Assembly (NCBI GenBank): GCA_976551045.1
Contig: CDPCPM010000030.1
Span: 2,356,001 to 2,420,000 of the forward strand
From: Glaucostegus cemiculus
Taxonomy: Eukaryota
Length of the DNA: 64,000 nt
Direction: 5' to 3'
In this document: positions 345 to 64,000 of the stretch, piece after piece
How positions within the stretch are numbered: the first letter of the stretch is position 1
How the letters are laid out: each line of letters starts with the position of its first letter
Translations under genes and position numbers: made by a program
Notes under the pieces: generated by a model
Told to the model about the DNA's origin: nothing
Database searches by the model: none
The model's input: only the letters and a program-made list of their open reading frames with translations

Positions 345-437
345 ATCTAGCACTTTCAACGACTCAGGAACTCAACGAAAATACACCTGGGCAAATAGAT
401 TGTTTATGCACAGTGCTGTACCAAGATGCAGACACAG
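345..437 (+). CDS. Divergent upstream exon, 93 nt, phase 1-1 (DLALSTTQELNENTPGQIDCLCTVLYQDADT)
   Basis: cttttgtattacag|ATCTAG...ACACAG|gtatca; open frame. Confidence 0.55.
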
Positions 438-3400
438 GTATCAGTTTTAGGGATTGCATGACACAGACTCTTGTCCAAAATCACCATCCAGGGAATAGGT
501 GAGAGTGAGTGAGGGGAGGTGGATGTGGGAGTGACCGAGGGGAGAGGTGTGAAGGAATGACCAAAGGGAGGGGTGTAGGAGAGACCGATAGGTATGGATA
601 TGGTAGTAACCGAGGGGAGGAAACTGTGGGAGTGACCGAAGGGAAAGGGTGTAGAATGACCAAGAGGAGTAGGAGTTTAGGTTTTACCGAGGGAATATCG
701 TGGGGAAGGGGAGTGTGGGTGTTATTGAGGGGAAATGCGTAGCAACGATCGAGGATGTGGTAGCCACCGAATGGAGGGGATTTGTGGGAGCAACCGAGGG
801 GTAGGAGGTGTGGGGTCGACTGAGGGAAGGGTGTGTGGGAGCGACCAAGAGGAGGAGATGTGGGCACCACCGAGGGGAAGGCTATTACTGTGAGCGCGAG
901 GCAGAGGATGTGAGCTGGATGCACAGACCACAGGAAGACGATGCGGAATGCAGTGAGGGGTGTGTGTGGGCTTGCTGTAAATCCTAATCTGTTGAGCTGT
1001 ATTTGTTCTTTGTTGGTGCAATGAAAGTTTGGTTTTGACAATTCCCGGCAGTCTCATCTCATCACAACAAGCTGGCTGATTGATTCCTCTCTTACACCCA
1101 CCATGTGTCCCTGCTTTGTCACAGACTCGGCGTCGATTGAAACTCAGGAACAGATGGATCCAGTTCATGAATACGTCAAGAATTTGTCCACAGCCCTATC
1201 AACAGGTATAATTTAAGGTTTTGGTGAAGGGGTTGGTGAAGCAGTCCTCCCAAATCTCCATCTCAGAGATTTAAACGGAATGAGGGGTGTGGCTGGAGTG
1301 ACAGAGGGGACTGAATGCAAAGTGTGGAATTGATGGAGTGATGGAGGATTGCGGAGAGGGTTGAGTGATTCAGGATTGTTGGGGGCAGTTATCGTTTGTG
1401 AGGGTTGGGCACTAATGAGAGAGGAGATGGGAGACTGGAGAGTGAGGCGTGGACTGTATCCGATAACCATGCTTGTTTGTGTTGCAAGTTTAGACACCGG
1501 TTCTGCAAGAGTTATTATGGGAAGTTGCCTCCTCTTCTCGGAATCTGTTTAATCCTGGGAATCTGTTCAATATGTCTACAGTCTTTTTAAAGTTCCAGAC
1601 CCACCCTATATTTCCTCTCCTTTCAAATCCACAGTCAGACACAACTCTGAAAGCCCAGACGACGACTGGAGAACCTTGTCTGTGTTTGCCCACCATACCA
1701 GCAGTGTCTGAAAGCTCAGGAATCAGTGGTTGGGTTCATTGAAGGGAACGCTGATACACATGTTTCGTGCCTGAAATTCATCTGGACCAAGAATGAGAGG
1801 CGTATAATAGAATGACAGAGAGTTGGGAGGGAGAGCTGGTGAAGGGAGCTAAGATGATTTTTTTTAAATCTTTTGATCCAACCGTCCATTGTCAGAGCTC
1901 CCATCCGAGCCTAACGATCCATTTGTTGCATCCTCCTGTATCTCTGTTCTTGTATTAAAGACACGGAGACTTCCACCAGGGAACATCCCAAAAGAACATT
2001 AACCGTAGAACCCACTCAAGCACCAGCTGTCCCAGTAGCAGATACATCCTCAGGCACCAAGCTGTGTGTTTGAGGGGCCATGCTCGCTCTGTGGCACGCA
2101 GCTGCCAAACATTGATTCACTTCCTGGATGTGTGGCATGAGTGACAGTTGTTTCTTCCATCTCTGCAAAACCAACTTCAGCAGTGACCGACGATGGACAA
2201 TGTACCATGCTCAGAGGTTGCTTAATGGGGATGGAGGCCACACCTGGTGTTTGCTTGGCAACGAAATGTCAGTGGTCACTGGGGATGTTTGAATCAGATT
2301 CAGTGAAGTTCACTGCCAAGCAGAGGGAGCATGATTTTTTTTTCACGATGTATAACAGCCGGGGTTGACCAAGGTTATGAACGACATTTGGGAAAGCGGT
2401 GCAAAGATCAATAAACCTGCTTTTTCGGAGATGGGTGCAACACCCTAGGCTCAACAAATGAGCCAACTTGAACCTGGATGGTGAAGGCTTCGAGGGACCG
2501 AAGGGTCCAGGCACAACTAGAGAGATGGGTGGATGTTGGGCACTTGGGTGTTTGTGATGTTGGAGGGTACAATGTCAGGCTAGCAGGCAGTGCTTCTGAG
2601 GTTGTGACATTCGAAGGCTTTGCTGGATTTGGACACAAGAGAATGTTAGATGTTTGAGCCAGTGTTGGGTTTCTGTTGAAAGTCTGTGTTGTGGTGTGAT
2701 AAAGAGTTATGGAATGGGGCTGGTATTGGTGGGCTGTGTGGGTTGCACTGTGGGTGTTGGAGAGAGTGGGTGGAGCGACTGAGCAGAAAGTGAGGGAAAT
2801 AGAGAGATGAGGACACGGATTGAAGAGGAGAATTGGGTGAACATGGAAAAATGACTGATCGGAAGATATGGATTACAGCGGGGAAAGTCGAGAGGTGAAG
2901 GGTAAAAGGGGAGAAGGAGTGTGAGAAAGAGTAATAGGAGAGTGGAATGGAGGGAATTTGAAAGGGATAAGTGGGAAGCTAACTAATAAAAGGGATTAAT
3001 TGTAGAGAAGGTTGGTGCAGTGACTGGAAAAGTGTGTGTTGACAGTGGAATGCGTTGACAGAGAAGAGGAGGATAAAATATTGTCGAGAGGGTGTAATTG
3101 AGGAAAGGCACATAATGGGTAAGGAGACAGAAGTAGAGTTACTGAGGAGCGATTGTGGTGAATGAAAGGAGATGGATGAAGTAAATGTATCAGCTGGTAT
3201 GATCAAGGAGAGAGAGAGACTTATGGACAAGGGATTGAGTGACTGCGGAGGGAAGGATGGACAACAAGAAAGAAGTTTGGTCACAGGTGAGTGGGAAGGA
3301 TTGAGTGGAGGAGCGGGTGCAGATTACCTGGGAGAAGTGCGTTGTGCATGTGGTTGGAGGTGTGCCGTGCTCATTGATGACAGTAATCCCACTCGTTCCC

Positions 3401-6400
3401 TCCATCCCAAGCAGCTGTTCATAAATTTGCATTCCCCGTGTTCGCCACCCAACCAGAGCCACAGGAACTGGTACTTTCATGGACCATTCTCCCTCATCCA
3501 GTTCCATCGGGCCAGTCCTCGGAGTTTTTAACTGTTTCCACTTTCCAATTCACTGCCATTCTCTTGATGCACCTGAACAGTCAGACACAACGCAAACACC
3601 CAAGGGACCAATGTCTGGAGAAGGTGGTTTGGGTTTGACCACCACCCCAGCAGAGTCTACAAGCTCAGGTAGGATTGGTGGGGATCAATGAAGGGAACGT
3701 TGCTCTCCACATTGTCCCTGGAATTCACCCCTAACCCGACACTGGGCAGTGACATGGAGGAATGGATGTCTGCAAAGGGGTAATGGAAGTCAATGGACAG
3801 ACACCGAATGATTTTTTTTTCTCCACTCACCCAGCCATCTGTTCACCAAACGGCTGAGTTCCTGTTTCAAAGTCTCCACTAACCGTGTCTCTGTTCCTTA
3901 TTCCAGACACCCAGACATCCACAAGAGAACAACCGAAAGAGTTAGCCACTGGAAAGCCAACCCAGGGCCCGTCCTCTTTTCAAACAGGGGAGAAATCCTC
4001 AGGTACCAAGTCTTGTGTCAGTTGGGTCATTTAACATCTCTGTGGCCCGAAAGCTGTCATGACCGGATACATTTGTTCGATGGATCAAATGATACAGGGG
4101 GATGATAATGTTGGCAGATAAATGCGTGGCTGAGAAGTTGGTGCAGGAGGGAGGGTTTTAGATTTATGGATTATTGGGATCCCTTCTCGGGAAGGTGGGA
4201 CCTGTACAGACAGGAAGTGTGACACTCGAACCAGAAGGGGACCAATATTCTTGAGGCGAGTTTTGGTAGGGTGGTTGGGGAGGGTTTAAACTAGTTGGTG
4301 AGGGGTCAGGGAAGTGGTGCAGTATGTCAGAGGAAGAAGGGAATATGGAAGCGTTAGATCAAACAGGCAGAGCTGCTTTGGGGGAAGAGAAACAGAGTAC
4401 AGGCTATAAAAGTAGTAAGGTGGCTGGACTAATGTGCATTTACTTTAATGCGAGAATTGTCAGGAATAAGGGAGATGAACTGAGGGCTTGGATAATTATG
4501 GGGGACGTTGATATTGTGGATATTACTGAGACATAGCTGACGTCAGGACAGGACTGGATATTGAATATTCCTGGTTTTCATTGTTTTAAAAGGGATATGG
4601 GCGGCAGGATAGCGTCGCGGTTAGCGCGACGGTGTTACAGCGCCAGCGATCGGGGTTCGAATCCCGTCGCGGACTGTAAGGCGTCACTGAATGACGCGTT
4701 CTTCCGTGTCTGCGTGGGTTTCCTCCGGGTGCTCCGGTTTCCTCCCACATTCTAAAGACATACGGGTAAGTTATTTTGGGAGTTTAAAATGGGCGGCGCG
4801 AAATCGTTGGGCCGGCAGGGCCTGTTACTACGCTATAAATAAAATAAAAATGATAGGGAGGGGACAAGGAGAACGGTGGCGATATTGGACAGGAACACTG
4901 TAACGGCTGCGGAAAGGGTGGAGTTTGCAAAAGGATTCTCTCCAGAGTCAGTATGGATAGATGTAAGGACCAGGAAAGGAGCGGTCACTCGACTTGGAAT
5001 ATTCTGTAGGCCCCTGGTAGCAGTAGAGACATAGAGGAACAGATTGGCAGGCAGTATTCGCAGAGAAGCAAAAATAACAGGTTTGTTATAATGGGAGATT
5101 TCAACTTCCCAAAGATGGATAGGAACCTGCTAAATGCCAAAGGTTTCGATGGGACTGAGTTGGATAAATGTGTCCAGGGTGGATTCCTGCCGCAGTGTGT
5201 CGACAGACCGACCAGTGGGAATGCCATGTTATCTCGAGGTTTCGGAAATGATGCGGGACAGGTGAAGGTTCTATTGTTGAGCAATTCGGGGACAGTGACC
5301 ATTGCTGTATAGCCTATAAAATCGTCATGGGCAAGGATAGGTGCAGAGAGGACAGAAAAATATTTAATTGGGGAAGGGTGAACTCTGAGGCTATAAGGAG
5401 AGAATTTCAGAGTGTAAATTGGACTGTCCTTTTTTAAGGGAAATGTACTATGGAGATTTGGACGATGTTCAGGGATCTTTAACGGGATGTTTGGGATAAA
5501 TATGTCCGGATGAGGCAGATAAGAAATGGTAGAGTGAAGGAACAGTGGGTAACGAGAGAGGTGGAACAACTGGTTAGGAAGAAGAAGGCGGCATATATTA
5601 GGCGGCAATGCACAGACAGGGCCCATGAGGAATATAGAAAAGCAAGGAAGGAACTTAGGAAAGGGTCGAGTAGAGCCAGAAGTAGGTATGAAAAGGCACT
5701 GGCTTGTACGGTTAAGGAATCTCCAAGGTTTTTTCACGTACATGAAGGGCAGAAGGATGGCTAGGGTTAAGGTGGGTCCGATTAAGGAGAAAGGAGGGAG
5801 GTTGTGACTGAGGAGGCGGAAGTGGGAGAAGTTCTCAATAAATACTTCGATACGGTATTCACCACGGAAATGGGTCGATGACGCGATAGAGGGTGTTGCT
5901 GAGGGTAATGTTCTTGAGTATGCAGATATCAAGAGAGAGGGTGTGTTGAAGTTTCTCAATAATATCAAGACAGATAAGTCTCCTGGGCCTGATGTAATAT
6001 TCGTCAGGCTGCTTCGAGAGGCGATGGAGCCTCTCAAAAGCCTGATAGAGATCTGTGAGGCAGTGACAAGGAAGGTTGATGAGGGAAGTGCGGTAGATGT
6101 GGTCTACATGGATTTTAATAAGGCGCTTGATCGGGTTCCTCATGGTAGGCTTCTTCAGAATGTCGAATATTAAGGGATCCATGGAAGATTGGTTCTGTGG
6201 ATTAGGAATTTGCTTCCCTGTAGTAAGCAGATGGTTGTGGTGGAGGAAGTACCCTCGGATTGGAGGGCTGTGAGTAGTGGTGTCCCGCAGGGACAGTTCA
6301 AGCCTGGTCGACTCATTGTGGGAAGGATGTGGAGGCGCTGGAGAGTGGACAGAAGAGATTTATCAGGATGCTGCCTACATTTGAGAGTATGGAATATGTG

Positions 6401-9400
6401 GAGAAGTTTACGGTGCTACGGCTTTACTCACCGGAGAGGAGGAGGATGAGAGGAGACTTGATGCAGCTGTATAAAATATTGATAGGAATAGACAGAGTAG
6501 ACAGTCAGCGCCTCTTTCCCAGGGCAACAATGCTGATGACAAGAGGGCATGGCTTTAAAGTTATGGGGGGGGGGAGAGTTCAGGGGAGATATCAGAGGGT
6601 TAATTTTCATTAGAGAGTCTTTGGTGCACGGAATGCGCTGCCTGCTGTGGTGGAGGCATATACTTTGGTGAGGTTCAAGAGATTGTTGGATAGGCATCTG
6701 GAGGAATGTGGGATAGAGGAATAGGAGGGAGTAAAGGGTTACGTTAGGTGTAGTTTCATGGACGTCACAACATGGTGGAATGAAGGCCCTGTAGTGTGCT
6801 GTATTGTTCTATGTTTCCATGGAGTCAGTTATACCTTCACTGCCGATTTCGGAAACATCTGTGCCCTCTCGAAAGGGTGGGGAACTTTTCTGGAATGACC
6901 TGTCTTGCATGGAGGCTTCTCCCGGAGATTCTATATAGATGGTTCAGTGGATAGAGCAGGAGGACTGGAACCTGGTGTTTGGTGGCAGAGGAAAGTAACG
7001 AGGCCGATGGGTGGATTTGGAGTGACCTTCTGGCAGGGTTAATAAAATATCTGCAAACTTATGAGGGACATGGATCAGATAAATGGCAGGAAATATCTCA
7101 ACTTAACAGAGTTGAATACAACCAGCAGATATAGATTTAGTTATACATTCAGGGATCAGAGAGTTATTGGGGATCTGAGGGGGGAGGGCACCATTTGCAG
7201 CCAGAGAGAGGTGACTGCTGGTGTACACTGCCGGAGAGTGCTGGAAGCAGAGTCATCAACAGCATTTGAAAATATCGAGACGAGCACTGAAAGGACTCAG
7301 GCTGTGCTGGGAGAGAGAATTAATACAGATGACTGTCCACTGGTCGGTGTGGACTTCCTGGGCCATTTGGCCTGTTTCCATGCCATGTGACTCTTTGACG
7401 AAGGAGAGAGGCTTGGGGCAGGAAACAGGGTGGAGCTTTCGCTGAAGACCAGAACCGGAGCTGGAACTGCAGTAGGACATAGACACAGATCAGTGAACCA
7501 ACCTGTGATTAGAAAACCAGGACTTCAGCAGGACAATAGAACCGTCCCAATGGGAGAGAGTGATTGTGGCGCCAGTGCACAGGATGGTTGTGAAGGATTT
7601 ATGTCTTTCACGGTGAGGCTTGTCTGGGGGACATGGCACTGTTGGAGTGTGGTCAGTAAGAATTCTGTTCACCTGAGATCTCTTGGAGGGTCTCAATATC
7701 GGACAGCATGTTGAAGGATCAGGTCCTTGGAATACACTGGGTGTTCGTGATATTTGAGCGCACACAGGCTGAGTGTATCACACAGCAGAGACGAGNNNNN
7801 NNNNNNNNNNNNNNNNNNNNNNNNNNNNNNNNNNNNNNNNNNNNNNNNNNNNNNNNNNNNNNNNNNNNNNNNNNNNNNNNNNNNNNNNNNNNNNNNNNNN
7901 NNNNNNNNNNNNNNNNNNNNNNNNNNNNNNNNNNNNNNNNNNNCCCGAAGTCAACAGCCCAAAGGATCATCAACGGAGGTCTCACCCAGGGAAAGTCTTA
8001 TGTCCAGAGGGAGACCCATCCTCAGCAACTAAGTCTTGAGTGTATGCTGCTTCATTCAATCTCTCTCATGCTGTGATAAAGAACTCCTCGAAGACTGTTT
8101 CAACATCTGGGCGTACAGTGCAGCAGGGAGGTAAAAGGACGGTATTGGTTGTTCGTTTTTCCCCTCTGTGCCTACATTTAGCAGCACGTGAGAACACTCG
8201 AAGGGACGGTGCCAGTTCCCACGGTGGATGATCAGCACCTTGGTGTGACGCTCATCCATGGAACTTGTTGAGAATGGTTGGCAGCCACAGCGAAAACCTG
8301 AGGCTGGGAGTTTGGTAACTGGGGAAAGTTGAGTGGTCACTGGGGCTGTGTTATTCACCTTCCCGAATGAATGGGATCTGGGTGAGGGAGCGAACGGAAG
8401 TCTCCACTGACGGTGACTGCCGGGGTTGACAACAACCTGAAAGATTATGACCATCAATTTGTTCAATTGCATGGATATAGGGAAATGTGGGCTTCAGGTA
8501 TCACTGGTTCAGCCTAGGCTAATTGAGTAGGAAGAGTTGCAATGGAGTCGCCTAGGGATTGGAGAATGTTTATTGTGTGGGTGGGGGCCAGGGATGGCTG
8601 GTGATGAGATGCACAGAGGTGGGTGAGGGAATACACTGGCCATTTTGACAGTAAGTATATTAGAGTGTACGTGGAGGTCATTGAATTTGGGAGGCGTGGG
8701 TTATCAGGGAGTGAATAAAGTGTTGGGGTATGAGAGGGTGTTGTTGGATTTGGGCATCAGCGAATGATTGAGGTTTGAAGCAATGTTGAGTCCTTCTGGA
8801 AAGCTCGAGTCGTGGACCAATGAGTGGAGTCAGGAACTGAGGGTGGCTTTGTTGGGTTTTGAAGGTGGAAGCACAGTGGGTGTTGGAGAGGGTGAAGCAG
8901 AATGATGTGTGGTGGGAAAGGGTGTAAATGGGAGAGAGATTGACTGACTGTGGTCAGAGAGGAGTACTGATGGAAATGAGATGGATATTGGTTCAGAGAA
9001 TGTATGAGGAAAGACATGCGATCTGTGACAGAATGGAGGGGAGATATTGCTAGAGAGAAAAGAGAGATAAGAACCCTGATTGATCACAAACGCACCAGAG
9101 GCGGCAAGCTCCGGTTTCAGTAGTGTACATCATTGAAGGGAACATTGATCCCCATGTTCATTCCTTGAAACTGAAACTGTCTCTGACTGAGGGGAGTGAT
9201 CTGCAAGGACAGAGTTTCGGAAGAGACAGATATTGAACGGAGACGCATGATGTTGGTTTCTCCACAGGCCCATTCCCATCTCTCCCAAACTCCTGTCATA
9301 GCCTGATGACCTACTTTGCTGATTCCAATCTCCTATCTCTCTCTTCCAGTCCCAGAGACTTTCACGAGGGAAGCATCCGGAAGATTATCCAATGGAGAAT

Positions 9401-54400: not shown

Positions 54401-57400
54401 TTGATCATGTTCAGTCCCAGAAGCCGATGTTCAGTCACAAATCCGAACCTGGCTGTGAGTGAGAGGAGTGATCTGGAGGGATATAGCTACGGATGTGAGA
54501 ATAATTGAACAGAGGAGCATGACGTTTGTTGTTTCATGTCCCAGCCCCCTCTGCCCCAAACTCCTGCCCGATTTTGATAACCTGCGTTGTTCCTTCCAAT
54601 TGTCCATGTCTCTCTTCTTTTATTACAGTCCAAGGGACTTCCAAAATGGAAGAATACGGAGGATCAGCGAATGGAGCATCAACACAGGAGTCGTCTTCCA
54701 TACCAGTAGGAGACTCGTCGTCAGGTACCAAGACTTATTTCAACATGGTCATTCAGCGAAACTGTGTCCTCGAAGCTCTTGCTAACCATTCAATTGTTAG
54801 ATGTGCAATTCAGCCGGACTCGATTAATAGTGTTCTATCCACTGCTACAAAATCAGAAATGTCTGAGACCTCACAAAAAGGGAGCTTTCGCTTACCAGGA
54901 AAGGAGAGCCTTGGACAGACACCGGTGTAATTTATAATGTTGTGTTTTGTCAGTTTACTAATAAGGATGACAGAAGTATGCTGTTCGTCCTCAAGGCATG
55001 GAAAGCGGCCGGTGACTCTGTTTGGTTTGACCTTAAGGCAAGATTTGCAAGGTTCGGATGCACTTCCATGCCTCTGTTCCTTTATTCCAGAACTGAAGAC
55101 TTCTCCTATATACCGGCCGACTGGATCATCAACTGGAGAGCCCATGCAGGAACCGACCTATCTCCCATTGAGCGAGACAGTATCAGGTAGGAAGTCTTGA
55201 TTGTTTGATATTTCATACACTCTCCCGGAGGCTGTGATCGAGCACATTGCAGAACGGATTTTTCTTCGTGGCGTGCATTGCTGCAGGGAGTTGAATGACG
55301 GTGTTGAATGTCTCTCCCTTCTGTACCCATCGTCAGTAGTAACTGAGGTCTCCACGTTTAACAATCAGCACCTTGGTATCAGCCTCATGCATGGGTCTGC
55401 ATGAGATTTGTTGGCAGCCAGAGCAGCGGAAGTGAGAGCTGTGTTTTGGTAACTGGGAGAATTTGATTGCGAATCCATCAGTCAATTCAGGAATAAATGG
55501 ATCTGGGTGAGAGACCGGACGAGAGCATTAACTGATGCTGACAGCCAAGTTTGACATCCAGCTGCCGGGTTATGAATATCAAATTCCACACTGGCATGGA
55601 TATCAGGAAATGTGTGCTGTGGGAAGCTCAGTCTGAATCTGGGATGACAGAATGTGAGATGTTGGGATGACGTGACTGAGGGATAGGAGACTCGTCATCG
55701 TGTGGGTGGGCGGGAATGCCTGGTGGTTTGAGGAACAAATGGAGAGTTGGAAATGAACTGGAAACTTGAACTGTGGGAATATTAGAGTGCAGGTTGTGAA
55801 TATTAACAATGGGGAGCCTGGGACATCATGAAATGTATGGATTCTTCGTAGATGGGAGGATGTTCAAGGACGAGGGCATCAGAGAATGATCAGAGTATGA
55901 AGCACTGTTGAGCCTTTGTGAAAAGCTGATGTACTGGAGCAATGTCTGTTGTCAGTAATTGATGTGTTCTTTGTTGGTCTTTGAGTGTGGTGACACTGAA
56001 TGTTGCAGATGGTGATGTAGAATGTTGACTTGAGGGAGGTGTGGAACTGGGAATCTGATGGACAGACTTATGTCAGAGAGCACGGCTGATGGACATTAGA
56101 GGGAATAATTCCTGAGGAAATCATTGGGGAGGGTGTGATGGGAATTGTGAAAGGTTGGGAAGGAGAGTTTGTTCATGAGAAAGGGATGAAAGGGACGATG
56201 ATGGACTGCAATCCCTCCAGGGTCTGCAAGCTCGGGAACAGCAGTATGAATCAGTAAAGGCAACAAGAGTCCCCAATTGCAGGCACTGAATCTGAACCTG
56301 GTTGTACTGATGAGGGGTCATCGGGCGGGAGGAGCTTCTGAAGGGAGATGCATGATGTTGTTTTTTTCTGTGGTCCAATCCCCTCATCTCCAATCACCTT
56401 TCCCAGTCTGATTGTCCTCCTTTGCAGCGTCCAATCTGCCGTGTCTCACTTCCTCTATTCCAGTCCCTGAGACTTCCAAAAGGGAACAATCCAGAAAAAC
56501 ATCCAATGCAACATCAACACAGGAACCGTCTTCTCCTGCAGCAGGAAACCAGTCCTCAGGTACCAAGATTTATGTCAATTGGGTCATTCGGCAAGGACGT
56601 GCCCTCGAGGTTCCTGTCAACCATGCATTCATCAGATGTGGACTTCAGCTTGACATGCTAGATGGTGATAGTTGCACACCAGCTGCCAAATTCAGAAGTG
56701 CCTGAGACCTCTGAAAATGGTGGGAGCACTTTCCCAAATGAGCAACCATGGGCAGAGGATGGCGTAGATCACGGTGTGGAGTTGGGCCAGTGGACCGAGC
56801 ATGAGGGCTGAGACCTGGTGTTTTGTTGTCAAGTGACAGAATGTGTCCGGTGGGTGTGTTTGTAGTGACACTCAGAAAGGATTTACAGGATACTTTATAA
56901 GTTTATGAGCTGTACGGATTGGTCTGACTGCAGGCAACACGTTCTGCAATCAGAAGTAAATGCACAGGACATCAGTTCGGCAATTGTTTAGATATTTAGA
57001 AGGGATCCCGCAAAATGTCTGCACAGCAGAGGACATTTGATGTGCCTGGGTATCGGGGAGCATAATAGAGTGTAAGTGCCCTGGAGTACACTGGACGTTA
57101 GGAAGTTCCGCGTGGACTCTAGTTCTGAACATCGGATGCACTCCCATGCCTCTGTTTCTTTGTGCCAGACCTCCAGACTTTGGCAATGGAACAGCCGAGT
57201 AGATCAGCAACTGGAGAGCCCACGAAGGATCCGTCCTCTCAGCCCTTGATTGAGACAGCGTCAGGTAACAATTCCTGAATGTCTGAAGTTTCAACAATCT
57301 CCCTAATGCTGTGATATCGCACCTGTTGCAGACTGATTCATCTTCGTCTTGTGCATTGCAGCAGGGAGGTGAATGCCGGTGTTGGTTGTTCATCTGTCCA

Positions 57401-60400
57401 CTCTGTGCTGATCTTCAGTATCATTTGAGGTCTGCACGCCTGTCAATCAGCACCTTGCTAGGAGCCTCATTCATAGGACTGAATGAGATTGGTTGACAAC
57501 CAGAACATCAGATTTTAGACCTGAGCTGTGGTAACTGTGGGAGTATTAGTGGTCACATGGGGATGTAAAATTGAGCTACAGAAATGAAACGGATATGGGT
57601 GAGGGGTCGGACGAGAGTCTGAACTGGTGCTGAGAGCCAGGGTTGACAATTAGTTGAAAGATTATGAACTTCACTTTGTTCACAGGCATAGACATCAGGA
57701 AATGAGGGTATGGTGGATCACTTGTCGAGCCTGCGCTGATCGAATATGAGGTGTTTCAATGGTGTGGCTGAGGGATAGGAGACAGGCCATTTTTTGGGTG
57801 GTTGGCAGGTACTCCTGGTGATTTGATGCACAGCTGGGGGGGGGTGGTGTTTGGAAAGCTCTGGACATTTGGTGCTTGAGAATATTGGACGCTCCGTTGA
57901 GGTTGTTGAATTTGGGTTGTGCGGGGAATAAGGGAGATCATGCACTGTTGCGGTATGAGAGGGTGTTTTATTGGTTTGGGCATAGGTGAATGATCGAGGT
58001 TTGAAGCAGTTCTGGGTCTTTCTGGATAGCTTGTGTCGTGGAACAAAGACTGGGGACAGGAACTGGGGGAGGCTTTGTTACCTTTTGAAGTTAGAAACAC
58101 AGTGGGTGTTGAAGAGGGTCAAGCCGATTGATGAATGCAGAGAATGGGTGTGACTGGGAGAGTTATTGACTGACTGAGGTCGGAGTTGAGGACAGAGAGA
58201 AATGACTGGGAAAGGGTCTCGGGGAAAGATTGAGGAAGGAGTTATAGGACATGTGACAGGACGCAGAGGAGAGATTGCTGCAGAGCAAGGCGAGACACGA
58301 TCCCTGATTGACAGAAAAGCAACCAGAGTCTGCAGCTCTGGTATCAGTGCGTGGATCATTGAAGGGAACACTGATTCTCATGATCGGTCACAGAAGCCGA
58401 AATCTGTCTGTGAGTGAGAGGAGTGATCTGGATGGATAGAGCTGCGGAATGGAGAGTTATTGAGCGGAGAAGCAGACGTTTGTTTCTCCACAGTCCCAGC
58501 CCCTACTCCGCCAAACTCCTCTCCGAGTTTGATAACCTGCGTTGTTCCTTCTAATTGTCCATGTCGTTCTTCTTTTATTACAGTCCCAGGGACTTCCAAA
58601 ATGGACGATTCAGGAGGATCAGCGAATGGAGCTTCAACACAGGAGCCGTCTTCCAACCCAGCAGGAGACACGTCATCAGGTACCAAGACTGATATCAACG
58701 TGGTCATTCAGCGAAACTGTGTCCTCGAAGCTCTTGCGAACCATTCAAATGTTTTATGTGCATTTCAGTCGGACATGATTGATGGTGTTAGTTCTATCCA
58801 CGGCTGCCAAATTCAGCAATGCCTGAGACCTCTAAAAAAAGGCTGGTTGGCTTACACTACAAGGGCAGCCTTGGACGGAGGCTGGTGTAACTTATAATGT
58901 TGAGTTTCGTCAGCTTACAAATGAGGAGTACAGAAAACTGCTGTGTGTAGTCAAGGCATGGAAAGTGGCCGGTGACTGTGTTTGGTGTGACCTATAGGCA
59001 AGATTTGCAAGGGTCGGATGCACTTCCATGCCTCTGTTCCTTTATTCCAGAGCTGAAGACTTCCCCTATATACCAGCCGACTGGATCATCAACTGGAGAG
59101 CCCACGCAGGAACCGTCCTCTCTCCCCTTGAGCAATACAGACTCAGGTACTAAGTCTTGATTGTCTGATATTTCATGCGATCTCTCTGATTTTGTGATCT
59201 AGCTCATTGTAGACTGATATTCCTTCGTGTCGTGCATTGCAGCAAAGAGGTGAATGACGGTGTTGAATGTTTACCTCTCCCTTCTGTACACATCGTCAGT
59301 AGTAACTGAGGTCTGCACGGTTATCAATCGGCACCTTGGTATGTGCTTCATACATGTATCTGGATGAGACTTGTTGGCAGCCAGAGCAGCAGATCTGAAA
59401 CCTGAGGATTGGTAACTGGCAGAATTTGATTGCGGATCCTTCAGTCAATTCAGGAATAAATGGTACCTGGGTGAGAGAGCGGATAGGTGGCTTCACTGAT
59501 GCTGACAGCCAAGTTTGACATCCAGCTACTCGGTTATGAACATTAACTTCTTCACTGGCATGGATATCAGGAATTGTGGGCTTTGGGGTATCACTGTCTG
59601 ACCGTGGGATGTTTGAATATGAGAAGTTGGGATGATGTAACTGAGGGATAGGGGCTGTTCATCGTGTGGATGGGCTGGAATGCCTGGTGGTTTCAGGAGC
59701 AGATGGAGTGGTGGAAATACACTGGACCCTTGAACTGTAGTAATTAAGAGGGCACGATGTGGTTATTAACATTGACTAGATCGGAGTATCATAAAGTGTA
59801 TGAATTCTTCGTATATGGGATGATGTTCAAAGAATATTGCCTCAGAGAATGATCAGAGTATGAAGCATTGTTGAGCCTTAGTGAAAATCTTGTGTCCTGC
59901 AGCAATGACTTGTGTCAGTAATTGAGGTGTTCTTTGTTGGTGTTTGAGTGTGGTGACACTGAGTGTCGCAGTGTGTGAGGTAGAATGATATTTTGAGGCA
60001 GAGTTGTAACTGGGACCTGATGAACAGACGTATTTCAGAGAACACGACTGATGGTCGTTAGAGGGAATACTTCCTCGGGAAATCATTGAGGAAGGTGAAA
60101 GGTTGGGGTAGAGATTTTGCTCAAGAGAATGTGGTGACTGGGAATATGATGGCCTACAAACCCTCCAGAGTCTGCAAGCTCGGCATCAGCAGTATGAATG
60201 AGGAAAGGGAACAAAAGTCCCCATTTGGAGACACTGAAGCTGAACCTGGTTGTGCTGATGAGTGATCTGGAGGGTGGAGCTTCTGAAGCAAGAGATGCAT
60301 GATGTTGTTTTTTTCTGTGATCCAATCCCCTCATCTCCAATCACCTTTCCCAGTCTGATTTTCCTCCTTTGCAGCTTCCAATCTGCCATGTCTCACTCTC

Positions 60401-63400
60401 TTTATTCCAGTCCCAGAGACTTCCAAATCTGGTACTGGGATTGTACACGGTGTAATTGAGAAGATTGAGAGGGGATCTGATTTAAACATACTTGATTGTT
60501 AAGGGATTGGACAAGATAGATACGGGAAATATGTTCCAGATGTTGGGGAAGTCCAGAACCAGAGCGCATGAAAAAGGGGTTGGTCATTTAGGACAGTGGT
60601 GAGGAAAAACTTCTTCTCCCAGAGCGTTGTGAGTTTGTGGAACGCACTGCCTCAGAGGGAAGAGGAGGCCAGTTCGCTGGGCACTTTCAAGAAGGAGCTA
60701 GATAGGTCTCTTATAGATAGGGGAATCAAGGGATATGGGGACAAGGCAGGAACGGGATATTGAGTGTTGAAAAATCTGCCATTATCTCAAAATTGCGGAA
60801 GACTCGAAGGGCCGAATGGTCTTCTTCTGCTGATATTGTCTATTGCCTATTGTCTAGAACATACAATGTAACATAAATACTGGAGACGTCTTCTACCACA
60901 GCAGGAAACCAGTCCTCATGTACCAAGATTTATGTCAATTGGTCATTCTCTGAGGAAGTGACCTCGAGGCCACTGTCAACCATGCATTCATCAGATGTGG
61001 ATTTCAGCTTGACATTATTGATGGTTTTAGTTCCACCCAAGCTGCCAATTTCAGAAGTGCCTGAGACCTCTGAATATGGTGGGAGTACTTTCACAAATAA
61101 GAAACTTGGGGCAGTGGCTTCTCCAGATCACTGTGTGGAGGTGGGACTGTGGACCTAGCTAGAGGGCCGAGACCTGGTGTTTATCGTCAAGGGATAGCAA
61201 ATGTCCGGTGGGTGTGTTTGGAATGACATTCAGAAAGGATTTACACGATAATTTATTCGTTTATGAGCTGCACTGATTGGTCTGACTGCAGGCAACATGT
61301 CCTTCTATCAGAGGTGAATAGAGAGGACATCAATTCGGAAAGAGGTCATATAATAAGAAGGGATCACAGCAAGATGTCTGCACAACAGAGGACATTTGGT
61401 GTGTCTGTGTTTCGGGGAGCATAATGGAGTGTAAGTGCCCTGGAGTACACTGGACGTTAGGAAGTACCTGGTGGTTTCTGGTTCTGCACGTTGGTGGCCT
61501 TTGGATATCCCTGTGACATCAGAGTGCACAACGCGTCGGATGCGCTCCCACACCTCTGTTTCTTTGTTCCAGACCTACAGAGTTCGGCAATGGAAGGGCC
61601 AAGTAGATCATCAACTGGAGAGCCCACGAAGATACAGTCCTCTGTCCCCTTAATTGAGACAGCCTCAGGTACCAAGTCTTGAATGTCTGAAGTTTCACAC
61701 CATCTCTCTGATTCTGTGATATATCACCTCTTGCAGACTGAATCAACATCGTGTCGTGCATTGCAGCAGGGAGGTGAATGACGGTGTTGGTTGTTTATCC
61801 TTCACTCTGTGCCTATCGTCATTAGCATCCTAGCTCTCAACCGTGGACCTTCAGACTCTTGGAATGAGACTCATTCACGTGTAAAGATGAGATCTGTTGG
61901 CAGTCAGAGCAGCAGATCTGAGTCCTGAGGGTTGGTAACTGGAGGATGTTTCATTCAACCTCAGGAATAAATGGCATCTCGGTGAGGGAGCGGACGGGTG
62001 GCTTCGCTGATACTGACAGTCAAGGTTGACAACCAACATCAGATTTATCAATATCAATTTGTTCAATGGCATGGATATCAGGAAAAGTAGGATTTACGGG
62101 ATCACTTGCTCAGCCTTGGATTATAGAATGTGAGGAATTTGAATGTTGAGGCTGAGCGATAGGAGACTGACCATCCTGTGGGACAGCTGGTAGCCTTGTG
62201 GATTCAGGCACAGATGGAGGGGTGGAAATAAACTGGGCACTTGAACTGTGCGAAGATATTAGTGTACGTGGAAGTTATTGTCTTCCGGAGACCTGGGGTA
62301 TCATAGAGTCTATGAATCTTTGGGGTATCGGAGGGTGTTCTGGCATGTGGACATCAGAGTCTGATGCGCGCATGCAGCAATGTGGAGTCCTTATGCAAAG
62401 CTTGTGTCGTGGAGCAATGACGGGGGTCACTAACTGCGGTTGTCTTCGGTGGCCTTTGAGTCTGGTGGCACTGAGTGTTGGAGAGGGAGAGGGAGAATGA
62501 TGACTTGAGGGAGAGGGTGTAACTTGGAGAGGAATGGAAAGACAGGTCAGAGAGGAGGACTGATGGAGATTAGAGGCAACAATTCCTCAGGAAATGATTG
62601 AGGAATGTGGGACGGTTGCTGTGACAGGATGGAGGGGAGAGATTGCTGTGCAGAATGGAGTGACACAATCCCTGATTGAGAACAAACCCACCAGAGTCGG
62701 CAAGCTGTGGTATCAGCAGTCTAGATGATTGAAGTGAAAACGAATACCCAAGTTCATGCACTGAAGCTGAAACTGGCTGGGACAGAGGGGAGTGATCTGG
62801 AGGGAGAAAGATTCTGAAGGGAGCGGTATTGAACAGAGATGCATGATGTTTGCTTTGCCAAATCTACAGTCGCCTCTTTCCCTCACATCTTTCACAGTCT
62901 GATTTCCTGCTTTGCAGCTTCCGGTATCCCATGTATTTCTTCCTTTATTCCATTCCCAGAGACGTCTATGAGAGAACAGTACAATGGAGCATCAACACAG
63001 GAGGCATCTACAATCCCAGCAGAAAATACGTCTTCAGGGACCAAGACATATGTCAATGGGGTTATTCAACCACGATGTGGCCTGGAAGCTCCTGTGAACC
63101 ATGCATTTGTTAGATGTGCATTGCAGCTTGACACGATGGATGGTGTCAGTTCCACCCCTGCTGCTAATTTCAGAAGTGCTTGAGACCTCTGAAAATGGTG
63201 GATGCACTTTCCTGGAATGTGCAAGCATAGACACGAAGATAACAGGGATCCCCAAATTCCGGCACTGTCCTTCCAGATCACAGCTCACAGTCACAGCCAG
63301 GTTCAGCTTCAGAGATCCCGAAGGGAGAGATATTGAACGGTGATGCATGGTGTTGGTTTTCCACAGATGCAAACTTTCCCAAATTCGCAGTCTGATTGTC

Positions 63401-64000
63401 CTGTTTTGCGGCTTCCAATATCCATGTCCCTCTCCGTTTGTTTCAGTGCCAGAGACTTCCAAAGGGGAACAATCCGGAGGATCATCCAGTGGGGCATCAA
63501 CACAGGAGTCGTATTCAGGCCCAGCAGGGGACACCTCTACAGGTACCAAGACGTATGTCAATGTGGTCAATCAGAAAAGCTCAGGACTCGAAGCTCTTGC
63601 GAACCATTCAATTGTGAGATGAGCATTTCAGCCGGACATGATTGGTGGTGTGTGTTCAATCCCCTACTGGCAATTTCAGTCGTGACTGAGACCTGTAAAA
63701 AAAGAGAAAGGTTAACTTACACGGAGTGGGCAGCTTTGGTCGGCGGCTGGTGTAATTCAAGATATGGGGTTTTGTCAGTTCATCGATCAGAGGGAATGAA
63801 AACTTGTCTTTGCCCACGCGACATGGAAAGTGGCACGTGACTGTGTTTGGTTTGACCTCCGTCAGGGTTTACAAGGGTCGGATGCACTCCCATGCCTCTG
63901 TTCCATTATTACAGTTCTGAAGACTTCCCCGATGGAACAGCCGACTGGATTATCAAATGGAGAGCACACGCAGGAACCGTCCTCTGTCCCCTTGAGTGAG
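345..64000 (+). CDS. Interior of a putative multi-exon Ser/Thr/Pro/Gly-rich (mucin/proteoglycan-like) gene built from about 40 intact phase 1-1 mini-exons; 5' and 3' ends outside window
   Basis: Recurrent (Y)n-ttattccag acceptors and CAG|gtac donors bracket 81-96 nt segments that stay open in one phase-1 frame and encode S/T/P/G/E-rich peptides. No start codon, signal peptide or globular domain seen. Confidence 0.6.
498..900. repeat. Degenerate G/A-rich minisatellite-like tract (gtgggagtgaccgagggga-type unit)
   Basis: Repeated 'gaccgagggg'/'gtgtgggag' words. Confidence 0.6.
1125..1205 (+). CDS. Divergent upstream exon, 81 nt, phase 1-1 (DSASIETQEQMDPVHEYVKNLSTALST)
   Basis: ccctgctttgtcacag|ACTCGG...CAACAG|gtataa; open; acceptor context 'ccaccatgtgtcc' shared with exon 345. 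Confidence 0.55.
1635..1719 (+). pseudogene. Exon-like relic (SDTTLKAQTTTGEPCLCLPTIPAVSESS), donor lost
   Basis: Homologous to 3581-3668; ends CTCAG|gaatc with no GT. Confidence 0.35.
1961..2053 (+). CDS. Divergent A/B-family exon, 93 nt, GC donor (DTETSTREHPKRTLTVEPTQAPAVPVADTSS)
   Basis: ctgttcttgtattaaag|ACACGG...CCTCAG|gcacca; open; non-canonical donor. Confidence 0.4.
3581..3668 (+). other. Exon-like segment (SDTTQTPKGPMSGEGGLGLTTTPAESTSS) with good donor but uncertain acceptor/phase
   Basis: Ends CTCAG|gtagga; nearest AG gives 88 nt, not a multiple of 3. Confidence 0.35.
3907..4002 (+). CDS. Divergent A/B-family exon, 96 nt (DTQTSTREQPKELATGKPTQGPSSFQTGEKSS)
   Basis: ctgttccttattccag|ACACCC...CCTCAG|gtacca; open. 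Confidence 0.6.
4090..6818 (+). mobile_element. Decayed CR1-clade LINE (ORF1 esterase end, APE endonuclease, partial RT, 3' tail) with internal deletions
   Basis: Translated motifs NAWLRSWCRREGFRF, CIYFNAR..NKGDEL, ITET, MGDFNFP, KSPGPD, VYMDFNKALDRVPH, SGVPQG, ERRRMRGDL; ends 'ttctatgtt'; array intron sequence resumes at ~6820. Confidence 0.9.
4599..4850 (+). mobile_element. tRNA-derived V-SINE (HE1-like) inserted in the CR1 endonuclease region
   Basis: tRNA-like head with B-box 'ggttcgaatccc', V-domain 'tctgcgtgggtttcctccgggtgctccggtttcctcccaca', A-rich tail 'taaataaaataaaaa'. Confidence 0.85.
7045..7395 (+). mobile_element. Old CR1-like 3' fragment
   Basis: Degenerate similarity to the RT C-terminus/3' UTR of the other CR1 copies (MRDMDQING.., 'ccagagagaggtg', 'ggcctgtttccatgc'). 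Confidence 0.5.
7796..7943. other. Assembly gap (148 N)
   Basis: Run of n. Confidence 1.
9350..9445 (+). CDS. Repeat exon A, 96 nt (VPETFTREASGRLSNGESTQEPSSVPAIETSS)
   Basis: ctcttccag|...CAG|gtacca; open. Confidence 0.6.
10090..10185 (+). CDS. Repeat exon B, 96 nt (DQNTSPVEQPNGLSTGEPTQDPSSVPLSETDS)
   Basis: ttattccag|...CAG|gtacaa; open. Confidence 0.6.
11054..11149 (+). CDS. Repeat exon A, 96 nt
   Basis: AG/GT intact; open (VQDTSKKERSAGSSNGASTQEPSSVPAGDTSS). Confidence 0.6.
11793..11888 (+). CDS. Repeat exon B, 96 nt
   Basis: AG/GT intact; open (DLKSSPMEQSSGSSIGEPTHEPSFVPFTETSS). Confidence 0.6.
12833..12928 (+). CDS. Repeat exon B, 96 nt (unit lacks its A exon)
   Basis: AG/GT intact; open (DLKTFQMEQPSGSTTGEPMQEPSSVPLRETSS). 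Confidence 0.6.
14229..14324 (+). pseudogene. Exon A with normal acceptor lost (ttattccg); in-frame AG 6 nt downstream could rescue it
   Basis: 'a' of ccag deleted; body open; donor gtacca intact. Confidence 0.5.
14971..15066 (+). pseudogene. Exon B with in-frame TAA (14991-14993)
   Basis: AC CTG AAG ACT TCC CCA GTG TAA; AG and GT (gttctg) present. Confidence 0.6.
16278..16373 (+). CDS. Repeat exon A, 96 nt
   Basis: AG/GT intact; open (VPETSRREQYRRSSNGASTQEPSSLPAGNTSS). Confidence 0.6.
17758..17852 (+). pseudogene. Exon B, 95 nt, frameshift and donor lost
   Basis: 1-nt deletion at 'gaacgccg'; ends CAG|ttact. Confidence 0.6.
19160..19255 (+). CDS. Repeat exon A, 96 nt
   Basis: AG/GT intact; open (VPGTSIREASGGPSNGASTEDPISIPSGETSS). 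Confidence 0.6.
19912..20007 (+). CDS. Repeat exon B, 96 nt
   Basis: AG/GT intact; open (DLKTSPMEQRSGSSTGETTQETSSVALSETAS). Confidence 0.6.
21276..21371 (+). CDS. Repeat exon A, 96 nt
   Basis: AG/GT intact; open (VPETSKRQQSGGSSYGASRQEPSSIPDRNTSS). Confidence 0.6.
22007..22102 (+). CDS. Repeat exon B, 96 nt
   Basis: AG/GT intact; open (DLNTSPMYQQSGSSTVEPTQEPSSVTLSETAS). Confidence 0.6.
24262..24357 (+). CDS. Repeat exon A, 96 nt
   Basis: AG/GT intact; open (VTKTSTRGASGELSNGAATQEQSSVPAGDTSS). Confidence 0.6.
25021..25130 (+). pseudogene. Exon B, 110 nt, with poly-C expansion (out of frame as assembled)
   Basis: AG/GT intact; C-run at ~25079-25091. Confidence 0.5.
26413..27960 (-). mobile_element. 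5'-truncated CR1 LINE nested antisense in host CR1
   Basis: Minus-strand PGNYRPVSLT, MDFSKAFDKVP, YKTLVRPPLEYCVQFWSP, LERRRMRGELI. Confidence 0.9.
28923..29965 (-). mobile_element. 5'-truncated L1-clade LINE 3' end nested antisense in host CR1
   Basis: Minus-strand C-terminal knuckle 'FCDICK...HMFGSCPLLEKYW', 'LAKRTMLHKWK', 'FENIWSPFI'; T-rich 3' UTR; ends aataaaaagattgaaaaagaa. Confidence 0.8.
31656..31751 (+). CDS. Repeat exon A, 96 nt
   Basis: AG/GT intact; open (VPETSKMEQSGGTSNDASRQEPPTIPAGNASS). Confidence 0.6.
32405..32500 (+). pseudogene. Exon B, donor lost
   Basis: Open body; ends CAT|tcaca. Confidence 0.55.
33672..34140 (-). mobile_element. CR1 3' fragment
   Basis: Minus-strand MRGIDRVDGQRLFPRA..RGHRFKV; tail 'ctatattctatgttt'; interrupts unit motif gggagaga|tattgaac. 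Confidence 0.85.
34288..34383 (+). CDS. Repeat exon A, 96 nt
   Basis: AG/GT intact; open (VPETSKREQSRGSSNGASAQETTSIPAGNTFS). Confidence 0.6.
34982..35077 (+). pseudogene. Exon B, donor lost
   Basis: Ends CAG|ctacg. Confidence 0.55.
36386..36466 (+). CDS. Repeat exon A, 81 nt (15-nt in-frame deletion)
   Basis: AG/GT intact; open (DPETSTREASGASRQEPSSVPARDMSS). Confidence 0.6.
36837..36932 (+). CDS. Repeat exon B, 96 nt
   Basis: AG/GT intact; open (DLKTSPMEQPNGSSNGEHTQELSSVALSETAS). Confidence 0.6.
38236..38331 (+). CDS. Repeat exon A, 96 nt
   Basis: AG/GT intact; open (VPETSKQEQSGGTPNAASAQEPSSIPTGNTSS). Confidence 0.6.
38906..39001 (+). CDS. Repeat exon B, 96 nt, weakened donor
   Basis: Open; ends CAA|gtacta. 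Confidence 0.5.
40229..40324 (+). CDS. Repeat exon A, 96 nt
   Basis: AG/GT intact; open (VIETSKREQSGGSSSGASGQDPSSIPTGSTPS). Confidence 0.6.
40912..41007 (+). CDS. Repeat exon B, 96 nt
   Basis: Open; donor gttcta. Confidence 0.5.
42180..42275 (+). CDS. Repeat exon A, 96 nt
   Basis: AG/GT intact; open (VREISEREASEGSVNEASTQEPSSVPAGDTSS). Confidence 0.6.
42648..42743 (+). CDS. Repeat exon B, 96 nt
   Basis: tctag|...CAG|gtgcaa; open; competing out-of-frame AG 5 nt upstream. Confidence 0.5.
44037..44132 (+). CDS. Repeat exon A, 96 nt, very weak donor
   Basis: Open; ends CAC|gtccta. Confidence 0.4.
44785..44880 (+). CDS. Repeat exon B, 96 nt
   Basis: AG/GT intact; open (DLKTWPMEQPSGSSTGEPTKDPSSVPLSETAS). 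Confidence 0.6.
46166..46261 (+). CDS. Repeat exon A, 96 nt
   Basis: AG/GT intact; open (GPENSATEQSGRTFNGASTQEPSSDPTGDTSS). Confidence 0.6.
46700..47092 (+). mobile_element. CR1 3' fragment
   Basis: 'gatgagggggtacctgatagag', ATRGHKF..FFTQIVVSAW; tail 'ttttctatgttct'. Confidence 0.8.
47263..47358 (+). CDS. Repeat exon B, 96 nt
   Basis: Open (DLETSLVEVPSGSTNAKPTQELSSVSLSETAF); TCG|gtacca. Confidence 0.55.
48642..48737 (+). CDS. Repeat exon A, 96 nt
   Basis: AG/GT intact; open (VPETSKREQFGRTSNGISTQEPSSTAAGNQSS). Confidence 0.6.
49211..50922 (-). mobile_element. 5'-truncated CR1 LINE (RT to 3' tail)
   Basis: Minus-strand KSPGPDGLQP, GFTKGKSCLTKLL, LDFQKAFDKVPH, SKFADDTKLGG, LYRALVRPLLEYCVQFW; (ctattgt)n tail. 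Confidence 0.92.
51109..51204 (+). CDS. Repeat exon B, 96 nt
   Basis: AG/GT intact; open (DLQSSAMEQLSRSSTAEHTKDLSSVPLSETAS). Confidence 0.6.
52493..52576 (+). pseudogene. Exon A, 84 nt (12-nt deletion), donor lost
   Basis: Open; ends CAG|gaaac. Confidence 0.55.
53232..53327 (+). CDS. Repeat exon B, 96 nt
   Basis: AG/GT intact; open (DLKNSPIEQPSGASTGEPTQETSSVPLSETAS). Confidence 0.6.
54629..54724 (+). CDS. Repeat exon A, 96 nt
   Basis: AG/GT intact; open (VQGTSKMEEYGGSANGASTQESSSIPVGDSSS). Confidence 0.6.
55091..55186 (+). CDS. Repeat exon B, 96 nt
   Basis: Open; donor gtagga. Confidence 0.6.
56464..56559 (+). CDS. Repeat exon A, 96 nt
   Basis: AG/GT intact; open (VPETSKREQSRKTSNATSTQEPSSPAAGNQSS). 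Confidence 0.6.
57169..57264 (+). CDS. Repeat exon B, 96 nt
   Basis: Open; donor gtaaca. Confidence 0.6.
58584..58679 (+). CDS. Repeat exon A, 96 nt
   Basis: AG/GT intact; open (VPGTSKMDDSGGSANGASTQEPSSNPAGDTSS). Confidence 0.6.
59051..59146 (+). CDS. Repeat exon B, 96 nt
   Basis: AG/GT intact; open (ELKTSPIYQPTGSSTGEPTQEPSSLPLSNTDS). Confidence 0.6.
60411..60919 (+). pseudogene. Exon A split by a CR1 fragment
   Basis: Starts tcccagagacttccaaa, resumes at ~60856 'agaacatacaatg...aaccagtcctcat|gtacc'. Confidence 0.7.
60428..60855 (+). mobile_element. CR1 3' fragment, same subfamily as 49211-50922
   Basis: 'gagaagattgagaggggatctgattt', tail 'tattgtctattgcctattgtct'. Confidence 0.88.
61573..61668 (+). 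CDS. Repeat exon B, 96 nt
   Basis: AG/GT intact; open (DLQSSAMEGPSRSSTGEPTKIQSSVPLIETAS). Confidence 0.6.
62954..63037 (+). pseudogene. Exon A, 84 nt (12-nt deletion), both normal splice sites lost
   Basis: ttccat| acceptor; CAG|ggacc donor. Confidence 0.55.
63447..63542 (+). CDS. Repeat exon A, 96 nt
   Basis: AG/GT intact; open (VPETSKGEQSGGSSSGASTQESYSGPAGDTST). Confidence 0.6.
63915..64000 (+). CDS. Repeat exon B, truncated by window end
   Basis: ttattacag|TTCTGAAG...; open to edge. Confidence 0.55.

Follow-up and report, generated by a model that had tools for sequence, protein, structure and literature searches.

Secreted mucins with multi-exon repeat regions are known, among them FIM-B.1 and MUC19, and the membrane receptors Dscam1, CD44 and CD45 carry duplicated, frame-compatible internal exons subject to regulated exon choice. 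The PTS domain of chicken Muc13 is encoded with one repeat per exon, and its authors proposed that its length is controlled via alternative splicing within an individual (PMC1552070, available text). The Xenopus secreted mucin FIM-C.1 is described as highly polymorphic by alternative splicing (PMC7177656, available text). For chicken MUC2, the available text of PMC3549977 reports a PTS region spread over several exons, with little alternative splicing and a single splice variant characterised. A separate group of proteins is characterised by the D10C domain. In UMOD and GP2, FimH binds glycans at N275 and N65, respectively (PMC8930769, in the portion available). The teleost omcins are lineage-expanded multi-D10C genes with a ZP module, of which omc5 has a predicted GPI anchor and guards zebrafish against bacterial infection (PMC11415648, in the portion available).

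The locus discussed here lies in the ray Glaucostegus cemiculus. The window, i.e. the whole 64,000-nt stretch of DNA that was analysed, covers positions 2,356,001-2,420,000 of contig C30 in a 2.85-Gb genome (C30 position = 2,356,000 + window number), and is largely occupied by an array of short cassette exons. This array is probably the stalk of one 196-kb gene, encoding a predicted secreted, O-glycosylated, mucin-like protein with two UMOD/GP2-type D10C heads and a two-cysteine tail, the cassettes of which would be included by default and singly skipped at a low rate, resulting in variable length. One repeat per exon is already known; the scale and the host family are new. As in the published descriptions, so far as available, of UMOD, GP2, OIT3 and the omcins, D10C occurs in variable number and the genes have expanded in a lineage-specific manner. 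However, UMOD, GP2 and the omcins carry ZP, whereas in the ray gene no ZP or GPI segment was found, and it has a long Ser/Thr stalk and an unrelated C-terminus. Judged by its sequence, the gene falls outside the UMOD/GP2/omcin ZP group. Chicken Muc13, as far as its available description goes, is a membrane SEA mucin with at least 12 near-identical 20-aa repeats (the count being interrupted by an assembly gap), while the ray gene has 125 diverged 32-aa cassettes of two types. FIM-C.1, FIM-B.1 and MUC19 contain trefoil or VWD/CK domains rather than D10C and are not homologous to the ray gene. The exon arrays of Dscam1, CD44 and CD45 are alike, but in the ray gene no transmembrane segment was found, nor any clear docking-site signal in the eight anchor regions scanned. 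Moreover, Dscam1-like splicing selects one exon per transcript, whereas the RefSeq models of the relatives join many cassettes together.

A scan of the window for the strict pattern CCAG-96 nt-GTAC yielded 26 matches on the + strand and none on the - strand, one of the 26 (47599) being a weak intronic match with a stop. The nucleotide profile built from these matches, which was used for the cassette search, found 50 matches in the window: two upstream copies, one partial match beside an N stretch, and 47 in the array (9350-63915). The latter correspond to 46 copies, as 60411 and 60856 are the halves of one interrupted copy. In 37 of the 46, AG and GT are present, the length is a multiple of three and no stop occurs; one of these 37 ends at 64010, past the window edge, and the 36 lying wholly within code for 1,147 aa, or 1,268 aa together with four upstream exons. 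The profile search thus arrives at the same numbers as an earlier note on this DNA, which had claimed 46 array copies, 36 of them open with AG/GT, and more than 1,200 aa in the window. Its description of two homologous phase 1-1 cassettes per ~2.1-kb unit is borne out by an alternation of A and B cassettes, the median intron being 648 nt from an A to the following B and 1,288 nt from a B to the next A. Each ~2.1-kb unit consists of a dead C-type remnant, an A exon and a B exon, and all array cassettes and upstream linker exons are of phase 1-1. The note had also listed four upstream relatives of the cassettes; all four are open, but the exons at 345 and 1125 are not 96 nt long, are missed by the profile, and their homology to A/B is unsupported. 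The parts of the window are the following:

345..437, + strand: open linker exon of 93 nt, phase 1-1; first stalk exon after the two D10C domains, not matched by the cassette profile
1125..1205, + strand: open linker exon of 81 nt, phase 1-1, not matched by the cassette profile
1627..1719, + strand: dead C-type cassette with no in-frame AG/GT pair; a nearby AG would give a frameshift, and the donor is GA
1961..2053, + strand: open cassette of 93 nt with a GC donor, profile match
3573..3668, + strand: C-type cassette found by tblastn with the C-type peptide; in-frame acceptor lost (AC at the acceptor position)
3907..4002, + strand: intact cassette of 96 nt, profile match
9350..64000, + strand: A/B cassette array of 46 copies, 37 intact, the last intact copy ending 10 nt beyond the edge
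20956..21031, + strand: example of the dead C-type remnant, which lies ~240 nt before each A exon and serves as neutral control
21276..21371, + strand: example of an intact A-type exon, 96 nt, AG/GT, phase 1-1
25021..25130, + strand: B copy with normal splice sites and a frameshift plus stop at a run of 14 C; the lone unexplained poison copy
44785..44880, + strand: example of an intact B-type exon, 96 nt, AG/GT, phase 1-1
60411..60919, + strand: A copy split by a ~410-nt insertion, donor weakened

The ~410-nt insertion, LINE-like by eye, splits A cassettes at 60411-60919, 81114-81629 and 92978-93494; it was copied three times through higher-order duplication, and all three copies end CAT|gt. 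Positions 17116-17139 hold the 3' remnant of an A cassette with its 5' part deleted and its donor kept, which was excluded from the copy count. Long interruptions of the array lie at about 4100-7700, 26100-31000 and 49000-50900; 26165-26800 matches the LINE endonuclease family PF14529, and the other interruptions are LINE-derived by eye. The intron after exon 345-437 contains a degenerate G-rich minisatellite with a period of 25-26 nt (514-881). No Rfam match was found within the window.

The earlier note had stated that the array runs off the right edge of the window, and it does so by ~89 kb, reaching the terminal exons. In 264 kb of contiguous sequence the profile has 128 + strand matches (1,961-153,135), equal to 125 copies over ~150 kb as three are insertion-split; 98 of these copies are intact, and 27 of the 125 are damaged or not scorable. 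A units with their flanks are only ~72% alike (median pair), and on this sequence evidence the array goes back to tandem duplication of exons long ago and is no homogeneous satellite. Furthermore, neighbouring A units at 48-98 kb and 122-139 kb are 91-98% identical and mark recent higher-order duplications. Assembly duplication is unlikely as the origin of the array: identity between A units peaks at 98% and is 75-83% for most of the old ones.

Non-repetitive flanking exons in compatible phase, which the earlier note had proposed to look for, are present on both sides of the stalk. The penultimate exon, used as a query, retrieved Pristis pectinata XP_051865285, which has a D8C sequence (the Pfam name for D10C), three cassettes and the same C-terminus; with this protein the D10C exons of the gene were located. 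In the following rows, negative numbers and numbers above 64,000 extend the window numbering beyond its edges:

-39,606..-39,557, + strand: predicted signal-peptide exon, phase 1, 69-81% identical to the N-termini of relatives
-27,114..-26,976, -26,672..-26,596 and -24,967..-24,788, + strand: three exons of D10C 1, located with XP_051865285
-14,448..-14,301, -13,875..-13,799 and -12,981..-12,820, + strand: three exons of D10C 2, located with XP_051865285
153,040-153,135, + strand: last cassette
153,875-153,990, + strand: penultimate exon, phase 1-0
155,938 onward, + strand: last exon, stop at 156,025-156,027, AATAAA at 156,450 and 156,463

Outside the stalk the gene has nine coding exons, each of them open and in phase. 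The six D10C exons have compatible phases and match the D10C of the family at up to 68%, and the terminal exons are 82% and 69% identical to the corresponding two exons of a Pristis protein of the family (P0001). The signal peptide is predicted from homology and a hydrophobic core. The gene spans ~196 kb, and all its intact exons add up arithmetically to 10,755 coding nt, or 3,585 aa. The idea of several genes within the array was rejected, as D10C third exons and terminal exons were found solely at the array ends; likewise, an NLR or other large-exon host was rejected, with no such ORF of at least 170 aa seen by eye in the 264 kb.

None of the 44 genome matches to the ZP family PF00100 lies on C30, the gene ending in a stop followed by AATAAA, and ZP is absent in all six relatives scanned for it. 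Over the last 90 aa, no 19-residue stretch exceeds a hydropathy of 0.79 in any of the 32 relatives scanned, and the C-terminal tail of the gene itself is basic. Because there is no ZP match on C30 and no hydrophobic tail in the 32 relatives, the product is predicted to be soluble and secreted, no ZP, transmembrane or GPI segment having been found. The likeness to a CD44- or CD45-type stalk drawn in the earlier note therefore falls away, as the host is a predicted secreted D10C protein in which no transmembrane segment was found.

Several further elements surround the gene. Intron 1 contains D10C exons a and b on the - strand (-30677..-30817 and about -31497..-31529), and a 1.5-kb piece of the array unit with an A cassette lies on the - strand upstream of the gene (-52542..-50980); no third D10C exon was found on that strand, and the pieces are probably relics of inversion or duplication. 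Downstream, the - strand holds two rhodopsin-family GPCR frames (PF00001), L026:7669-8340 (partial) and L027:8564-9484.

The gene belongs, by sequence, to a large, automatically annotated and apparently undescribed family of sharks and rays. No paper on an elasmobranch D10C-mucin family was found in a literature search of openly accessible main texts. Relatives were found in Pristis, Mobula, Hypanus, Hemitrygon, Amblyraja, Leucoraja, Rhinoraja, Chiloscyllium, Carcharodon, Mustelus and Pristiophorus. RefSeq models of rays, skates and sharks, such as Pristis XP_051865285, Mobula XP_062892816 ('mucin-5AC-like'), Amblyraja XP_032879434-39 and Carcharodon XP_041038350 ('OIT3-like'), combine a signal peptide, D10C, cassettes of 28-32 aa and the same C-terminal domain. 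They share the layout of the ray gene, but cassette-profile matches reach a maximum of 8 in any of 160 retrieved proteins (the longer-protein search extending to 2,000 aa), compared to 125 copies in this gene. Within the genome, matches to the penultimate (C-terminal) exon number 76 and are spread over 23 contigs, all 82 candidates having been scored; D8C has at least 115, with 150 of 361 candidates scored. Some contigs, among them C34 and C140, are possibly duplicate haplotypes. A paralog on C34 has one D10C and three cassettes within 20 kb. On C591 there are 49 cassette matches within 130 kb; C110 carries 21 over 50 kb, with a D10C lying between them. The unit of construction is a different one there, and long arrays must accordingly have originated repeatedly.

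Near-identical cassettes also occur elsewhere on C110 (54-96 and 540-575 kb; 1.32, 1.6, 2.27-2.35 and 4.09-4.18 Mb), on C469 and on C591; with 40 of 982 candidates scored, these loci point to a young subfamily with several long arrays. On the - strand of C61 (C61:3876258-3886341) a D8C match lies 10 kb from a ZP match, and this locus is likely a conventional gene of the UMOD/GP2/OIT3 type. Some family members (database proteins P0003, P0013, P0028, P0040 and P0071) instead have a second C-terminal domain of ~45 aa, which lacks the conserved cysteine pair and has no convincing Pfam match.

The 98 intact cassettes comprise 3,021 residues, of which 45.6% are Ser, Thr or Pro (35.6% Ser + Thr, 10% Pro), 12.1% acidic and 6.1% basic, with a single Cys. 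N-sequons number 40, compared to 29 +/- 4 in shuffled sequences. From this composition the stalk is predicted to be densely O-glycosylated. The earlier note had called the product mucin- or proteoglycan-like; the mucin-like composition is evident, but the aggrecan-type Ser-Gly enrichment is absent, with 63 SG in the cassettes against 61 +/- 6 in 500 shuffles, although some attachment may occur.

The D10C of Mobula XP_062892816 matches human GP2 (7p6r) with E=9e-20, while the single D10C exons of the gene score below the Pfam cut-off. D10C 1 has 7 Cys rather than 10, and D10C 2 is degenerate. A sequon at the GP2 N65 or UMOD N275 position is absent in both D10C domains of the gene; among the relatives, the N65-equivalent sequon is found in 19 of 59 domains and the N275-equivalent in none of 71. 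Lacking these sequons, and with a degenerate D10C 2, this gene copy gives no sequence support for a FimH-type decoy role. The C-terminal domain is encoded by two exons, and both its Cys are invariant in 14 of 14 aligned relatives. Searches with it gave no Pfam family, no convincing PDB sequence match and no usable Atlas match. An AlphaFold model from 14 sequences predicts three helices (pLDDT 78.5, pTM 0.56), and its best fold match among 48,161 chains has Z 5.1 and rmsd 6.7; these model-based searches do not establish a new fold. No VWD/CK or SEA Pfam family was found in the scanned relatives and C-terminal alignments. The idea of a SEA-like half-domain was rejected, as the two kinds of C-terminus in the family give no convincing alignment (probability 0.9%).

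An indication that the cassettes are translated comes from nonsense changes in 104 array copies of 96 nt (48 A and 56 B), a set that leaves out other lengths and partial matches. Changes were counted by column, each variant once, rather than by branch on a tree. In the reading frame, 2 of 32 possible one-step nonsense changes are seen, compared to 213 of 379 possible non-synonymous changes, 84 of 147 synonymous ones, and 24 of 42 nonsense changes in the two alternative frames, with Fisher p-values of 1e-5 (transversions) and 0.007 (transitions); because every variant is counted once, recent duplicates do not inflate this test. Between non-synonymous and synonymous changes there is no significant difference (p=0.24 and 0.62). 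On pooled pairwise comparison, dN/dS is 1.13 for 42 A copies and 0.89 for 50 B copies, cassette copies differ at dN ~0.23-0.29, and D10C and C-terminal exons have dN/dS of 0.35-0.61. On the contrary side, the substitution rate in exons (0.12-0.15) is close to that in nearby introns (0.13-0.27), with codon positions nearly equal. Indel events number 4 (A) and 5 (B) in the 96 exon nt, compared to 23-34 per 130 nt of flank, and deletions common to several copies are of 12 nt. Furthermore, the AG/GT dinucleotides are less variable than their surroundings. In the dead C-type remnant, GT is kept in 33 of 60 copies and a stop is present in 41 of 60, while A and B copies keep GT in 110 of 121. The reading frame is thus kept while the cassette residues are largely free, and the cassettes are very likely real, translated, symmetric exons of a mucin-like stalk.

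Damage mostly hits the splice sites. Of 121 scored copies, a count that leaves out two forced alignments and five partial matches, 18 are splice-dead: 14 of them remain open, and the other 4 also carry a lesion. In 3 more copies a lesion is combined with preserved AG/GT. The lesion rate is thus 3 of 103 where the splice sites are intact, compared to 4 of 18 where they are dead (p=0.009). A T at +3 of the donor marks both stop-only copies but just one of the 98 open ones; in all three insertion-split copies the G at -1 is missing (CAT for CAG). Donors are weak in general, with G at +5 in 6 of 98 intact copies. Since in-frame stops are purged, well-spliced copies would habitually be included. 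The frameshift at 25021-25130 is possibly an assembly error at the 14-C run; if real and included, it would truncate the protein. RefSeq models of relatives contain single-cassette skips of 28-32 aa in 3 of the 8 genes with several isoform models: Amblyraja radiata has four of 32 aa, Leucoraja erinacea a single one of that length, and Rhinoraja longicauda a single one of 28 aa. These isoforms are automatic models, and 2 of the 4 Amblyraja skips fall in identical duplicates and possibly reflect ambiguous mapping. For 98 exons, an inclusion of 98% each gives ~14% full-length molecules by arithmetic, and 95% gives less than 1%; transcript heterogeneity would therefore follow from leakiness alone. 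By phase arithmetic, any subset of cassettes would join in frame. In eight anchor regions, a search for docking complementarity with 10-mers and at most one mismatch gave best values of 24-39 of 96, against shuffled means of 29-37, none being clearly above. The combinatorial diversity proposed in the earlier note is thus matched by single-cassette skips in RefSeq models of three skate genes, while a functional combinatorial repertoire would be hypothetical.

Exon order, phases, open frames, splice dinucleotides, stop purging and the absence of ZP and transmembrane segments are read directly in the sequence, and several explanations of them were weighed. A regulated, combinatorial or mutually exclusive choice of a small subset of the ~100 cassettes, as in Dscam1 or CD44, would suit their uniform phase, the weak donors, the divergence of the copies with the pooled A dN/dS of 1.13, and the skip isoform models in relatives. 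It is nevertheless unlikely: the annotated isoforms differ from a full-inclusion form by the loss of a single cassette, the strong purging of stops suits habitual inclusion, non-synonymous and synonymous changes are seen at rates that do not differ significantly, no 10-mer docking rises clearly above shuffles in the eight anchor regions, and low-complexity Ser/Thr segments would be poor specificity modules. Stop purging would be equally expected if splicing were strictly constitutive and length differed only between alleles via unequal crossing-over, as in VNTR mucins. The recent 91-98% identical duplications, which show the array changing by recombination, and the little alternative splicing of the chicken MUC2 PTS region in the available text (PMC3549977) point in the same direction. 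However, the weak donors, the single-skip models of the three skate genes and the small full-length fraction left at 98% inclusion make this account improbable as well.

The remaining explanation is that of a dead or dying gene, or of a repeat amplifying a once-coding unit of which most copies are no longer spliced. The 27 damaged or unscored copies of 125, the similar exon and intron substitution rates, the one frameshifted copy with normal splice sites and the degenerate D10C 2 are in line with it. Yet it is very improbable, as the frame-specific depletion of stops built up after amplification, the co-amplified dead C-type cassette decays while A and B do not, and all exons outside the stalk are intact; within it, only a very recent loss of function is possible. 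The reading of the array as the default-included, occasionally skipped stalk of one secreted mucin-like protein is thus retained as the probable one.

For such a stalk, the following course may be envisaged. A three-cassette unit (C-A-B) would have lost C and then been amplified by unequal crossing-over. With phase 1-1 units, copies could be gained, or lost via splice-site decay, without a break of the frame, while a stop would be eliminated from any well-spliced copy, since it would cut the protein short. Selection would act on bulk properties (length, 36% Ser + Thr and net negative charge) rather than on exact sequence. Intact cassettes would be included by default, and leaky single skips would vary stalk length, unlike a Dscam-like code. 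By analogy with UMOD, GP2 and the omcins, the protein may function as a soluble mucosal barrier or microbial decoy. A further-reaching proposal, which we regard as speculative and rather doubtful, is that of an undescribed expanded family of secreted uromodulin-decoy mucins, in which ~100 skippable exons in a single gene would yield stalks varied in length and glycan spacing, and thus a splicing-made innate decoy repertoire on the mucosa.

What appears as a repeat would then be the coding core of a very large gene, and short-exon mucin arrays may escape notice in cartilaginous-fish genomes. The family would join the antibacterial UMOD/GP2 decoy domain to a mucin stalk in place of a ZP filament. 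The array also provides a natural example of exon birth and death, in which copies would be lost by splice-site decay and in-frame stops purged. Finally, its 98 distinguishable symmetric exons make the splicing-tuned length proposed for Muc13 directly testable by long reads.
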